Positions 8,750-17,968 of a DNA stretch of 23,035 nt are shown in pieces. The number at the start of each line of letters is the position of its first letter. The stretch's first letter is position 1. The stretch spans positions 11,323 to 34,357 of the forward strand of contig CAZWPQ010000022.1 of NCBI GenBank assembly GCA_964636085.1, written 5' to 3'. This DNA is from an uncultured Nitrososphaerota archaeon. GTDB taxonomy: Archaea; Asgardarchaeota; Njordarchaeia; Njordarchaeales; Panguiarchaeaceae. Under the pieces are notes generated by a model. It saw only the letters and a list, made by a program, of their open reading frames with translations, was not told where the DNA came from and did not search any database. The position numbers and the translations under genes were made by a program.

Positions 8750-11700
8750 ATGAGGTGTACAAAAACATTCTTAATTCTATTGTTGTTACTTGGTGTCGCC
8801 TATAGCGATGTCAGGTTTGTAAATACTTCACGTGGGGCTAGATACAACAACCCAAGGACACACACAGCGAATGCATTTAGTGAATGGGGTCCTAGTAAGC
8901 ATACTGATCAGCTTCATACGGGATATGATCGCGTTAATCATCACAATATACATTTTGATCGGCTAGCTAAGCTGGATTCTTGGATTGAATCGCGGGCCAT
9001 GGAAGTGGATAAGAGGTTAGAGATTCTAAGAAGGGGGTCTCTCAAGGAACTATATACATCTTGGGTAAGATATGGTGATGATAACGCGGAGGAATCCAAG
9101 ATAAATAAGGTCTTCGGTAGAAGTCCTACGCCACCCTCTAGTGGCGACTGGATTATAGGGGATGAAGTAGTGGTTGTTGAGGATACAACATACATAATTA
9201 ATGGTAGTATCCTAATATTGGATAATGGAACACTCGTTCTGAAGAACTCGACCATAATCATGAACTTGTCGAGTGATGGTCAATATAGGATAGAGGTTAA
9301 TCGGGGAGGAAATCTGACATTGATTAATAGCACAATTACAGCATATAATCCTGCGTATAATTACTATATAAAGGCTGATCTGGGATCAGTATTGTATATC
9401 GATGGTAGTGAGATAAGTCATGCCGGATATGCCTATGGTATAAATGGCGACAGGACAGGGCTATGGATCGGTACTCATAATGTCACAATCAGGGGCTCCT
9501 ATATCCATGATAACTACTTTGGTATTTATATGTATGCCGCGGAAAATGTCACGCTTGAAGACGTTTCTATTGATGGGATTAATACGCCATATGGCATTAT
9601 GATCGATCATACAATAAACGCTACATTATTGAACTGTGAACTATATAACTGTGGAATTGTAATTGATGGAGCAAACAAGAGAGAATTTTTCAGCCACGAC
9701 ATTACTGGTTGTCTAGTGGATGGAGACCCAGTATACTATATTGTGAACCAGACAACCCCCTCACTAGTAGCAGACTTTGGTGAATACATAATAGTTAATT
9801 GTATGGATGTATCAATGGATGGTTTCCTCGTGGAGGGAAAACCAATAGCCATAGAAGTTGCCTATACGTGGATAAATATCTCCAACACAGAGTTTGTAAA
9901 TAATACATACTCAATAATTTCACGTAATTCAGACAATGTCATTGTCCATAAGTCAAGATTCCTAAATTGTAGTAGCGCCATCTATTCTAAAAACACGACC
10001 CTCGAAATACGCTATGGAGTATTCAACAACAGCTATATGCGCCTATACAATACGACAGTACTTCTAGCCAACAGCACAATCAACATTATTACGCCAAACG
10101 AGAAAAACCTAATAGCCGTATATACAGATCACGAAACACGCCTTATGATTCTTAATCTGTCTGTAAACCTTAATGCTGATAGCCAGCAGGTATGTGTGTT
10201 CGAAATAGATGGCTCATTGATAAATATCTCCAACCTACATGTAAATGCTACTGCCAGCAATACATCTGAAGTGTTCATTCTCTATATAGTCAATACCAAG
10301 AGTCCCTCACTCAATAATATAAATGCGTGGGGACACTCCTTCAATGGGAGTACTCTAGCAATTGTAAATGCCAGTAGCGTTCAGGGATCCCTAAATGTAA
10401 ATAATTCAGTATTTTATATATCATGTATGGACTATAACTCGGACACATATGCCGCGGGCCTGAGGATTTATGACACGAATACGATAATCCACAATTCTAG
10501 CTTTCATATCCATGCCACGGGAATGCCTACATCCTATGGTTACTGTGAGGCTATATATGCCAGTACCGCATCGAATGTGCTTGTGGAGAACTGTTCATTC
10601 GATGGTCTTTCCGAGAAAATGTCTTATTATGTGTTTGTCTATAGTGATTTCGTTAACAATCTCACAGTGAAGAATTCTATCATCAACATGTGGGCCTATG
10701 AGGGTACCTACTGGACTACTGCTTTTGATTGTTTTTTGACATCATTCTATATGGATAACGTGACAATCTATGGAGATTTCTATGGCTTTGCTCCTCCAGA
10801 TCTGTATGATACATACTATAGCTCTTACTTTGGCTTAGTAGGCTTCCTCCACATGTCGGAGATATCCATAACCAATACAAAGATCGATGTCTTAACTAGG
10901 GGGTTTGCATTGCAGATACTCCTGTTCAATGTTGATGGAGATATGAGCCTCGAAAATATCACATTGGACAATAAGCTTTATGATGATGGATTCTCCGTGG
11001 GTATATTTGACAATTATGCGGTGACAACAATCGACAGACTCAATGTGAGTGTTCGTATGTTTAATGACTCATTCACATATATTATCTATAGCAACTATAA
11101 TTCCAGTGTTTATGTAGGCAACACTACTGCTACAGGCGAGATGTACAATAATTCATACTTGATATTCATGGCTACGGCAAGGAAGTCCAACGACTCGGTG
11201 ACTAATGTGGTTCTTAACTTAACGCTATATAACATATCGGTTGTTCAAATATTTAGACCAGCGGGTGGCTACATAAATATTAGACAGTGTTGGGCCACAT
11301 TACATACATATGACCTAGCTAGCCCCTACTTTGTGTACACACTCATTAGCTATAAGCCATGGTCGCCAACGTACTTTGGTCCATCTCAAATAATTATATA
11401 TGATACTGTTGTCGAAAATACTGGGCCGAAATGGGGTACCGGAATAGTGGTTCTTAATGATTCCAGGATAGTTCTCAATAATACATACATAGAAGGCTTT
11501 GATAGGGGTCTATACATCTATAACTGTAACTCCTGTGTGATTTCATATAATGGATTTGTTGATGTTGCCGTATCCTCAGTAGTCTTGGAATCATGTCTGA
11601 ACATATCACTTGAGAATAATATTATAAATGGTAGCCTATTCGGGGTAATACTGGATTCCTCAGTCGATATTACGCTAGATGCCAACAAGCTTTGGAACAC

Positions 11701-14975: not shown

Positions 14976-17216
14976 TTATTTTCCTAGGAGTTGTTTTATC
15001 AGGCTATATGCGCTTTTTGCCATCTCTAAGAATGTGTCGTATCTTTCATCTTTCTTTGTTGCTAATGCTCTAACAACGATCTGATCCACATCTTTTGGAA
15101 GGTTTCTATTCACATTGCTGGGTAATACAAAGCGACCCAGAATTTTCTGGTTAATTATCTCTACAGGACTCCCAACAAAGGGGGGCCTGCCAGTCAATAA
15201 TTCATAAAGTATTACTCCTACTTGGTATATGTCTGTTCTCTCATCTGGCTGTCCAAAATATCTACTATCGATCTGTTCGGGTGCTGCATAGATTAGGGTA
15301 ATTGCTGGGACCGATGATGTGGTTGATAGGAGCTCAATTTTTGCTGTGCCGAAATCTCCAATCTTGGGCATCCCATTTAGGTCTAGCAGTATATTTTCAG
15401 GCTTTAAGTCGAAATGTCTTATACCTAACATGTGGACTTGGTGCATTGTTTTTGATACATAATATACGAGACTGAGTGAATGAATAACATTATAGCGCCC
15501 GATATATTTTCTCAGGCTTCCCCCAGCCACGTATTCCATCACAAACCATGGAAATGGCTCGAAGCTGTACTCAACAATATTGACTATGCCCTTGATATTC
15601 TTCTTAGATAATAAAGCCCATATCTCTATCTCTCTTTTGTATTTTTCCAATAATTCGAAGCTTACTGTCTGTAGCGTATTTACGAATTTGGGGATTTTAA
15701 GGGCATAATACTTGTTGTTTTTTATGACTTTATAGACGATGCTAAAACCACCCTCTCCTATAACCCCGATCACGTCGTAGTCTCTGAACTTTTTATCTTT
15801 AATATAGAAAACATCAGCCACAGGGGCTAGTGGTGCGGATTTGTATAGGTCCTCATGCGCTTTTTTAAGTTCTTTTCTTAGGTAGACTGTATCGAAGACA
15901 TCTCGTTGTGGTTTATATTGGATATCAGCCACAGGTTTTTCCTCAGCACCGGATATTATGCCCCTGCCTAAGTCTATTTTGACGTCTATAAGTCCCATAT
16001 CCATAGCATCTTCTATTAGATCGAGAACCATGTTTTTTCCGATTTGGAATTTTTCTGCTAGATATTCTAAGGTTAGGTTGCTGTATTTCGACAATAGATT
16101 TCTTAGCTTCTTTGCAAATTCATCTATATCTGGCTTAGCTATCTCAAATTCGAGGCTAAAATCATTCTCAAATCTTCTACCACCCACGTTATAGGTAATA
16201 CTACCAGAAATCATCGACGGGCCAAATTTTTTTGGAATTATCTGGATTTTCACATCCTTCTTAGAATCCTTCCCAATAGAGCCGAGGCTTATCCTAGTTG
16301 TGTCTACATCATATGAAGCGGATCCATCAATATGAAGAGTAACATCAGACACATCGACAGGCGAATGCAATGACAATACAAGGAACTGTTCGCTCCCAGC
16401 ATGGAATGTCTTAGTAGCGATATCAACGCTAAGAGATGGTGCCAAGATCTCTGAAGGAATGTGGACTTTAATAGTATCCCTTGCGTCATCGAAATATCTT
16501 ATATAAAAATAGGCGTAGGGGTCTGAAACACTAAGAAAGTCACATATCCCGCTTGTATAAACCTTTACTATGTCCTTGTGTAGAATTATCCTACTAAATG
16601 ATCTGGATACTCCTAGGAAGGGTATCTCCACGCGCTCTAAGATTCCAGTACCTCCACGAACCTCAAAGCTTATTGTGAAACTATAATTCTTACCAAGAGT
16701 AAACCTGACTGTGGATGGCCGAACCAGTCTTATGGTTGGTTTCCTGTAATTATACTTTAGCGCCGATTTACCGATAGTAAAACTGGTTATGTATTCAGAC
16801 TTACCACTTCCGATCCTATAGACATTAAATTTAAATGTTTTGTCCCTCCAGTATATATAACCAAAAATCGTTCTCAAAACAGCCACAGCTACTCCCACAC
16901 GAGGAGAGATGTCACTATCCAACTTTAGGTTCATATCTAGGGCATATTCATAGAACTCCTCCTCCTTGTAGGGATCAAAAATGTTTCCGGTTCTGACATG
17001 TCGAGTCCTCCTAATCCGCTTACCACCAACCTCTTTCATTATATCATTAATTAATTCTTCATCGATGTCTGAGCTATTAATAATTGTATCCTCTCCAATA
17101 GCCCCTATGTTTGCACTTAGATTTAAACTGGAGAATAGTATATCCTTTAATTCGTTCATTGCGCCATTAGGAAAAACAATATGATATTTAGCGGCTCTAA
17201 AAGGCTCAGATGACAA
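14976..17216 (-). CDS. Cytoplasmic Hanks-type Ser/Thr protein kinase with N-terminal unknown region, Ig-like (CARDB/COG1361-like) domains and a PCI-like winged helix
   Basis: Kinase motifs GEGGFSIV, YALK, E of helix C (KREIE), HFDLKPENILLD, IGDFG, YAAPEQ, TDIYQVG and TGRPPF. Ig-like segment APSLSVDI...GSEQFLVLSL...ISGSITYNVGG. PCI-like segment KYSNLTLEYLAEKFQIGKNMVLDLIEDAMDMGLIDVKIDLGRGII. TTG start with GGGGA SD. No TM segment. Confidence 0.9.
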   Translation of the reverse strand: MSSEPFRAAKYHIVFPNGAMNELKDILFSSLNLSANIGAIGEDTIINSSDIDEELINDIMKEVGGKRIRRTRHVRTGNIFDPYKEEEFYEYALDMNLKLDSDISPRVGVAVAVLRTIFGYIYWRDKTFKFNVYRIGSGKSEYITSFTIGKSALKYNYRKPTIRLVRPSTVRFTLGKNYSFTISFEVRGGTGILERVEIPFLGVSRSFSRIILHKDIVKVYTSGICDFLSVSDPYAYFYIRYFDDARDTIKVHIPSEILAPSLSVDIATKTFHAGSEQFLVLSLHSPVDVSDVTLHIDGSASYDVDTTRISLGSIGKDSKKDVKIQIIPKKFGPSMISGSITYNVGGRRFENDFSLEFEIAKPDIDEFAKKLRNLLSKYSNLTLEYLAEKFQIGKNMVLDLIEDAMDMGLIDVKIDLGRGIISGAEEKPVADIQYKPQRDVFDTVYLRKELKKAHEDLYKSAPLAPVADVFYIKDKKFRDYDVIGVIGEGGFSIVYKVIKNNKYYALKIPKFVNTLQTVSFELLEKYKREIEIWALLSKKNIKGIVNIVEYSFEPFPWFVMEYVAGGSLRKYIGRYNVIHSLSLVYYVSKTMHQVHMLGIRHFDLKPENILLDLNGMPKIGDFGTAKIELLSTTSSVPAITLIYAAPEQIDSRYFGQPDERTDIYQVGVILYELLTGRPPFVGSPVEIINQKILGRFVLPSNVNRNLPKDVDQIVVRALATKKDERYDTFLEMAKSAYSLIKQLLGK

Positions 17217-17425: not shown

Positions 17426-17968
17426 ATGGTAGAAAGGGTTGTAAAATTTGACCGCACAACCGAGAGGTTTGATCGCGGAAAAATCGTAAGGAGCATAATG
17501 AGTGCCGGGGGCTCTAGAACACTCGCAGAGAGAATTGCCTATGTTGTAGAAGAGAGGCTTAGAGACAAACCGGAAGCAACTACGATGCATATAAGAAGAA
17601 TCGTATTAACAGAGCTTGGGAGACTAGATAACGATGTGAAGGACTCATTTCTATTCTATGATAGGGTAATGAAAGGGAGAATAACATATGAAACAGGGAA
17701 ATTCTTTATTGTCAGGGACGGGGACCTTATCCTTGGGGGGAGTACTCAGAAAACTAGACCGAGAAAAATCGCTCATATTGACGATGTTCGCTGTCTAATA
17801 GAAGAACTTAGCGAAGATTTATGGATCGGTGGAATTAGTAGGAAGAACGCAGAAAGGAGAAGCAAGATACTTATTGATGCGATTAGAGATAGTACGATGA
17901 GCAAGGACGACAAGGAATACGCAATAAGACTCGTGACGGATTTTAGACAAGGTTTATTTAGAGAGTAG
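17426..17968 (+). CDS. ATP-cone domain protein with an uncharacterised C-terminal domain
   Basis: N-terminal VVKFDRTTERFDRGKIVRSIMSAG...AERIA..V......ATTMHIRRIVLTEL matches the ATP-cone pattern (V.KRDG..E.FD..KI...I..A...T.EI...V...L). The C-terminal half (KGRITYE.GKF) resembles, from memory, small Thermococcales-type ATP-cone proteins; this was not verified. Confidence 0.78.
   Translation: MVERVVKFDRTTERFDRGKIVRSIMSAGGSRTLAERIAYVVEERLRDKPEATTMHIRRIVLTELGRLDNDVKDSFLFYDRVMKGRITYETGKFFIVRDGDLILGGSTQKTRPRKIAHIDDVRCLIEELSEDLWIGGISRKNAERRSKILIDAIRDSTMSKDDKEYAIRLVTDFRQGLFRE

Follow-up and report, generated by a model that had tools for sequence, protein, structure and literature searches.

A soluble Asgard archaeal Ser/Thr kinase with an Ig-like sandwich and a PCI-type winged helix but no PCI helical repeats

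Does a protein kinase that carries a PCI-type winged helix point to a scaffold of the proteasome lid, COP9 signalosome (CSN) or eIF3 kind in an archaeon? The question is raised by a gene on the minus strand of a 23,035-nucleotide stretch of DNA (the window) that spans positions 11,323 to 34,357 of contig CAZWPQ010000022.1, in the assembly GCA_964636085.1 of an uncultured archaeon placed in the Asgardarchaeota (Njordarchaeia, Njordarchaeales, Panguiarchaeaceae). An earlier note, written from the sequence alone, had described the product as a eukaryote-like cytoplasmic kinase in which oligomerisation through a PCI winged helix could drive activation. What was observed there is confirmed by our analysis, and the interpretation is partly supported. 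The gene is real and its product, a cytoplasmic Ser/Thr kinase, is specific to this Asgard lineage; we give roughly even odds (a probability of about 0.5) to the reading that its beta-sandwich and winged helix together dock it onto a substrate or another partner.

The open reading frame (ORF) and the segment that had been quoted from it (FAKKLRNLL...GRGII, aa 367-421, DNA about 16118-15954) are both present, and the position first assigned to that segment (16130-15951) was off by at most four codons. The order of parts in the 746-aa protein is an orphan N-terminus, a beta-sandwich, a winged helix and a C-terminal kinase domain, laid out in the window as follows.

14976..17216, minus strand: whole kinase gene (P0001), an uninterrupted ORF of 746 aa
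16797..17216, minus strand: aa 1-140, N-terminal orphan part without a family match; model unusable (pLDDT 34)
16386..16796, minus strand: aa 141-277, beta-rich; a first Ig-like domain, of CARDB type, is a tentative reading (pLDDT below 50)
16140..16385, minus strand: aa 278-359, beta-sandwich with an Ig-like fold (adaptin-ear/GAE/MG type), from the structure model and its structural neighbours
15948..16127, minus strand: aa 364-423, winged helix (H1-S1-H2-H3-S2-S3) of PCI/UFL1-DDRGK1 type, from Pfam and the model
15954-16106, minus strand: Pfam PCI match (aa 371-421), inside the winged helix
15780..15947, minus strand: aa 424-479, linker between winged helix and kinase, partly helical, with low model confidence
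15036..15779, minus strand: aa 480-727, Ser/Thr kinase domain of the Hanks type; HFDLKPEN at 15393-15416

As had been claimed, the protein has no transmembrane segment: the highest Kyte-Doolittle mean over 19 residues is 1.38, in a stretch that contains two arginines. The N-terminus has no hydrophobic stretch either, and the protein is thus soluble and cytoplasmic.

The identity of the winged helix rests first on profile searches. The Pfam PCI profile (PF01399, curated cut-off 22 bits) matches aa 371-421 with 26.3 bits (E 8.6e-6) in the whole protein, with 30.2 bits (E 5.4e-7) when the isolated 95-aa segment is searched and with 29.3 bits (E 1.9e-6) in a six-frame search of the genome. The runners-up on the segment are E3_UFM1_ligase (E 0.059, 13.5 bits), another family with a PCI-like winged helix, and then FeoC (E 0.28), and among the DNA-binding helix-turn-helix (HTH) families of Pfam none is found below E 0.1. 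PCI is the sole significant family on the segment, and no generic winged HTH (wHTH) outscores it. By contrast, a generic wHTH of the same genome, in a 131-aa protein with Zn-ribbons and a winged helix (WH), matches HTH_DeoR, HTH_11, PCI, MarR, GntR and about twenty more families with similarly weak scores. The segment also follows the PCI consensus Y..I.L..LA......E..I...I..G.I..KID...G.I. The assignment as a PCI-type winged helix thus stands on a score above the cut-off and on a fold that agrees with it. However, PF01399 passes its cut-off in one of 14 ordinary control prokaryote genomes searched in the same way, so that the match alone is no mark of a eukaryote-specific protein.

The fold was examined in an AlphaFold2 model of aa 141-445, predicted from the single sequence and confident (pLDDT 70-89) only for aa 278-427, which was compared with representative structures in an all-against-representatives search. 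In the model a canonical winged helix (aa 364-423) follows straight after a beta-sandwich (aa 278-359). The best match of the winged helix is UFL1/DDRGK1 (8b9x_B; Z 9.7, root-mean-square deviation 1.9 over 64 residues, 20% identity), followed by CSN3 (4d18_C; Z 9.5, deviation 1.4 over 61 residues), PCID2 in TREX-2 (Z 9.0) and a proteasome lid subunit (Rpn), CSN7 and eIF3 subunits (Z 8.1-8.4; CSN7 8.3, eIF3 8.1-8.3). A profile built from the winged helix and its Asgard relatives finds eIF3e, eS25, PSMD6, PSMD3 and DDRGK1-UFL1 in the PDB at E 3e-5 to 4e-4, with Lrp/AsnC regulators close behind (E 4e-4). A search of the PDB with the single sequence gives only E values near 0.4-0.8, with ClpP, eS25 and PSMD6 intermixed. 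The predicted fold agrees with a PCI winged helix and is no proof of one, as Z does not discriminate it from a generic wHTH.

A PCI domain is bipartite, with helical repeats followed by a winged helix, and the protein has the winged-helix half only. The profile is covered at positions 30-80 of 84; positions 1-29 are unmatched, and in our model the place of the helical repeats is occupied by the beta-sandwich. Because the match starts at position 30 and a sandwich replaces the helices, the domain is not a full PCI domain. In aa 1-370 Pfam detects no TPR or HEAT family, and indeed no family at all.

The earlier note had suggested a search for other PCI and MPN proteins in the same genome. The six-frame search reveals no second PF01399 match above the cut-off, and the best JAB/MPN match (PF01398) reaches 17 bits where the cut-off is 22.5, in a genome that is 2.41 Mb long and 83% complete, which leaves the absence of partner genes unproven. 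In the same genome Vps28 (PF03997) has no match and EAP30 a weak match only. A custom hidden Markov model (HMM) made from the winged helix and its Asgard relatives retrieves from it only the 131-aa protein mentioned above, whose Pfam profile is that of a generic HTH. Scaffold partners of the lid/CSN/eIF3 kind were not found, and there is no sign of an assembly of that kind for the kinase to join. The protein is a modest curiosity and not a proto-PCI complex. The 131-aa protein itself (G000:C6:61330-61725, plus strand; L002:1264-1659) carries its winged helix at the C-terminus, besides two Zn-ribbon motifs of the CxxC type, and its gene adjoins a thermosome gene.

The second part of the putative docking unit is the sandwich. 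The earlier note had placed one or two Ig-like domains before the winged helix and likened them to adaptin ears. One such domain is modelled (aa 278-359, seven-stranded, pLDDT 70-81), while the second (about aa 150-277) is only hinted at. Closest to the modelled domain are the BBSome GAE domain (Z 10.1), the gamma2-adaptin ear (Z 9.6), the alpha-adaptin appendage (Z 8.8) and the GGA GAE domain (Z 8.4-8.8), and Foldseek matches it to alpha-adaptin at E 5e-5. However, transglutaminase and complement MG barrels tie with the ear domains, and no Pfam ear or GAE family matches. The likeness to an adaptin ear is thus reasonable, but the model establishes only a general Ig-like sandwich. Further upstream, the AlphaFold model of aa 1-285 is unusable (pLDDT 34). 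The Atlas leads for aa 1-277 (CARDB, NPCBM_assoc and TRAP_beta, at 0.77-0.81, all below 0.82) are too weak to count, an ESM Atlas search with aa 1-440 returned nothing, and comparison of aa 141-277 with aa 278-362 gave no significant similarity that would indicate an internal repeat.

The kinase domain is catalytically complete. Pkinase (PF00069) matches aa 480-727 (E 4.5e-39) and is covered from position 1 to 253 of its 263 positions, and the motifs GEGGFS, YALK, HFDLKPEN (aa 601-608), DFG, APE and DIYQVG are all intact. The HxD motif reads HFD (aa 601-603), and the kinase is non-RD as had been stated. Non-RD kinases are usually independent of activation-loop phosphorylation. The nearest kinase domains are those of archaeal Ser/Thr kinases (STKs) with varied partner domains, at up to 43% identity; PF01399 is found in none of the best 120, and five close archaeal STKs besides that of Methanocaldococcus infernus (below) have no PCI match.

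Taken as a whole, these features suggest a kinase with a protein-binding docking module, in which a sandwich like that of adaptin ears or GAE domains is paired with a winged helix of the PCI/UFL1 type. The module would hold the kinase at a scaffold or carry it to its partner or substrate; it would neither nucleate a ring like those of lid, CSN or eIF3 nor bind DNA. Since the kinase is non-RD, it would probably be constitutively competent and controlled mainly through localisation or docking, and not by phosphorylation of the activation loop. Protein binding is likelier than DNA binding because the winged helix is acidic (net charge -3 over aa 361-428), with Asp and Glu on helix 3.

The reach of this argument is limited by how isolated the protein is. 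With aa 1-470 as the query, a word-indexed search of 5.8 billion proteins, phmmer over 1.84 billion representatives and searches of 40 relatives and of 400 genomes of the phylum (Asgard) gave no homologue, but only the protein itself and two weak partial matches. The four same-genus genomes hold no orthologue, only counterparts of other kinase paralogues at up to 44% identity. The first weak match is a C-terminal winged helix from another Asgard genome (Pfam PCI, 42 bits). The second is a 787-aa protein in which Zn-ribbons are combined with five winged helices of PCI/UFL1/DDRGK type, one Ig-like domain and the C-terminal domain of Vps28 (Vps28-C).

The latter match leads to a family that is relevant to the docking reading. 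The winged-helix profile retrieves 260 proteins, and the best 120 all belong to a family of ~790 aa, annotated by NCBI as "PCI domain-containing protein" in Loki-, Thor-, Hod-, Heimdall-, Odin- and Hermodarchaeota, with Pkinase in 0 of these 120. The lineage names also identify the phylum of the host as Asgard. The Ig-like domain of the kinase matches that of the family by BLASTP (E 2e-6), and the HMM of the family domain finds the kinase as its sole match in the host genome (E 7.9e-4; hhalign probability 61%). This weak, reciprocal similarity suggests, and does not prove, a remote kinship between the Ig-like domain of the kinase and that of the family, which we call Znr-5xWH-Ig-Vps28C after its domains and which corresponds to ESCRT-I-like proteins of Makarova et al. 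2024 (PMC10936438). Both have a PCI-type winged helix beside an Ig-like sandwich, and the two building blocks of the putative docking module are thus the same two as in these ESCRT-I-like proteins. Unlike in the family, however, the sandwich of the kinase precedes the winged helix (the reverse order), there is one winged helix, Zn-ribbon and Vps28-C are absent, and a kinase is present. A member of this family was not detected in the host genome (83% complete), where PF03997 gives nothing and the family HMM only the weak kinase match.

Several points weigh against docking. The protein is a singleton, so that conservation offers no argument for function, and aa 1-277 match no family and model poorly. 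The structure model was built without an alignment, and the generic wHTHs NiaR, BirA, Z-alpha and MarR (Z 8-9.3) fall within one Z unit of the PCI matches. The Ig kinship is weak, its per-genome E of 6.8e-4 coming from a search across 400 genomes. Finally, the gene is monocistronic, with no operon and no conserved neighbourhood.

Among the alternatives, the one that survives best is the mechanism put forward in the earlier note, that the PCI-type winged helix homo-oligomerises the protein and that proximity then activates the kinase by trans-autophosphorylation. In the lid, CSN and eIF3, PCI winged helices are joined edge to edge, and dimerisation activates many kinases of the Hanks type. The winged helix also lies only ~55 residues ahead of the kinase, and in a genome without a detected partner PCI protein the association would be with itself. 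However, the helical solenoid and the C-terminal bundle helix that stabilises PCI assemblies are both missing from this half-domain, the HFD kinase belongs to a class that usually does not need phosphorylation of its activation loop, and a PCI-based assembly is made less likely by the host genome, in which no further PCI or MPN match passes the cut-off. We therefore regard activation by self-association as unlikely.

Several known systems share parts with the kinase. The PCI proteins of the lid, CSN and eIF3 (PF01399; PSMD6/Rpn7, CSN3, eIF3e) share with the kinase the winged-helix subdomain in profile, consensus and fold. They differ in having helical repeats where the kinase has a sandwich and in their partner PCI and MPN subunits, which were not detected in the host genome; we know of no canonical PCI protein that is fused to a kinase. 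In UFL1 and DDRGK1 of the UFM1 E3 ligase (PDB 8b9x, 8c0d, 8qfc), in contrast, the PCI-like winged helix occurs without a solenoid, as it does here, and they provide the top structural match as well as the Pfam family that ranks next after PCI on the segment. The kinase is nevertheless not a member of these families (PF09743/PF09756), as PF09743 scores 13.5 bits where its cut-off is 23.2; it has a single winged helix and not an array, and there is no UFM1-system context. For the sandwich, the likeness to the ears of alpha- and gamma-adaptin, GGA and the BBSome GAE domain is one of fold (Z 8.4-10.1); with no sequence-family match and equal scores for complement MG and transglutaminase barrels, it extends only to a general Ig-like sandwich.

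Combinations of these modules have been described before. Makarova et al. 2024 (PMC10936438) reported that Asgard ESCRT-I-like proteins combine HTH/PCI, Ig, adaptin-appendage, longin and Vps28-C domains and that STKs of euryarchaeal ESCRT loci carry Ig-like domains and a small helical PCI-like domain, and they proposed oligomerisation or interaction roles for such domains. The claim of an uncharacterised architecture accordingly holds for the exact arrangement, which has no homologue anywhere we searched, and not for its parts. One of those STKs, Methanocaldococcus infernus WP_013099899 (P0085; arCOG03682), has a kinase domain homologous to ours (39% identity, E 1.4e-35) and also joins Ig-like domains and a 'PCI' similarity to an STK; its aa 639-742 match PSMD6 in HHpred at 92% (PMC10936438, Table S3). 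It is, however, a receptor that has a signal peptide and a transmembrane segment and whose Ig/PEGA domains lie outside the cell, whereas the kinase described here is soluble. A link between our winged helix and the 'PCI' tail of the M. infernus protein was considered and rejected, since the tail is all-helical and C-terminal and shows no similarity. Judged from its sequence, the region of about aa 620-733 of the M. infernus STK looks all-helical and would match the helical half of a PCI domain and not the winged helix.

That the docking unit plugs the kinase into winged-helix scaffolds of an Asgard proto-trafficking or ESCRT-like machinery would be a more specific form of the docking reading, and we consider it a long shot. 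If true, it would make the protein a prokaryotic scaffold-docked kinase assembled from the modules out of which the PCI, UFL1/DDRGK1 and adaptin-appendage systems of eukaryotes later arose, and phosphorylation would be tied to the precursors of membrane trafficking.

A role in antiviral defence is also improbable, though a case can be made for it. The orphan, fast-evolving N-terminal region would sense a viral protein, and an STK of PD-T4-6/Stk2/MADS6 type would then phosphorylate many proteins of the cell. The PADLOC models PD-T4-6 and mad6 match at E 1e-49 to 1e-51 and the NCBIfam model antiphage_MADS6 at E 1e-27, the gene is a singleton absent from the four same-genus genomes, and a gene for an HTH-NTase (AbiE-like) lies 9 kb away. 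The matches, however, are confined to the kinase domain and are generic. The Methanocaldococcus ESCRT-locus receptor STK and a paralogue in the host genome score equally high or higher, the NCBIfam scores all fall far below their cut-offs (MAD6 97 bits against 460), and there is no adjacent defence gene.

Still less probable is a nucleic-acid tether, in which the winged helix would bind DNA, as in a one-component regulator, or RNA, as in eIF3 and PCID2, and so couple phosphorylation to a site. The fold is shared with NiaR, BirA, MarR and Z-alpha, the Asgard winged-helix profile reaches Lrp/AsnC and eS25 as well as PCI proteins, and the PCI winged helices of eIF3c and PCID2 reportedly bind RNA. 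However, the acidic surface, with Asp and Glu on what would be the recognition helix, speaks against DNA binding, as does the failure of every DNA-binding HTH family to score below E 0.1 on the segment, and the negative charge counts against a nucleic-acid tether in general. Docking to protein remains the reading that we prefer for the winged helix.

The gene begins with TTG at 17216, preceded by GGGGAT, which resembles a Shine-Dalgarno motif, and by TATA-like, A/T-rich sequence. Codon 20, an ATG in the same frame, offers another possible start, and a scan of the region for bacterial promoters and terminators was uninformative, the host being an archaeon. That the gene is non-functional, either a chimera of assembly or a decaying lineage-specific ORF, is scarcely credible: it is a single member on a single contig of a metagenome-assembled genome (MAG), with a TTG start and a poorly modelled orphan region, but the frame is uninterrupted over 746 aa, three well-formed domains follow in order with all kinase motifs intact, the GC content is even throughout the gene and its flanks, and the start is preceded by the signals named above.

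The domain arrangement is new, and its modules are already known in Asgard archaea. It is among these archaea that the forerunners of eukaryotic scaffolds are sought, and the PCI-type winged helix circulates among them in free-standing form. The protein shows that it can be joined to an ear-like sandwich and a Hanks kinase while lacking both hallmarks of eukaryotic PCI complexes, the helical half and the partner subunits, which supports the view that the winged helix is a mobile interaction module that predates PCI complexes. The region of aa 275-430 would also offer a small soluble construct with which to probe binding by the winged helix. The weight of all this is limited, as the protein is a singleton from one MAG without a known partner or a conserved context, and its building blocks had been described already.

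The host genome (G000) encodes seven further STK paralogues, at loci L005, L003 and L023-L026.

C46:7725-10037, minus strand: STK paralogue
C38:8478-10532, minus strand: STK paralogue
C32:10877-12250, minus strand: STK paralogue
C52:489-2087, plus strand: STK paralogue
C7:42415-45006, minus strand: STK paralogue
C29:20546-22756, minus strand: STK paralogue
C29:22879-24441, plus strand: STK paralogue

In all seven the kinase domain is N-terminal, and in most it is followed by helical or winged-helix-like repeats and then by LRR, TPR or WD40 repeats. Pfam does not class these repeats as PCI and gives only weak generic HTH or sub-threshold UFL1/PCI matches. Most paralogous kinases of the genome are also non-RD, with HMD or HGD.

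In the window, the kinase gene is convergent with a gene for a 2068-aa surface protein and divergent from a 180-aa ATP-cone gene, and a gene for a 1581-aa surface/7-TM protein follows. The gene that adjoins it on the divergent side is placed as follows.

17426-17968, plus strand: ATP-cone gene, 180 aa

The four same-genus genomes searched have one to five copies each of this ATP-cone family (38-57% identity), and three of them have more than one. A conserved kinase/ATP-cone neighbourhood was looked for and rejected, the other copies having differing neighbours and no kinase beside them. None of the eight neighbouring proteins scanned has a match to an ESCRT-family Pfam model.

Counterparts of the paralogues are present in the same-genus genomes (L010-L014). 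The kinases on C32, C52 and C7 (L024, L003 and L023) are without a glycine-rich loop (SSPRWNVWLGE) and have HGD...DWE in place of HRD...DFG, and from these motifs they may be atypical kinases or pseudokinases; the same motifs are kept in a counterpart (L013) in another genome of the genus. In a same-genus genome (G002), a kinase with winged-helix and TPR repeats is adjoined by an ORF (L012:1900-2989, plus strand) whose sequence reads as that of a putative actin-family protein.

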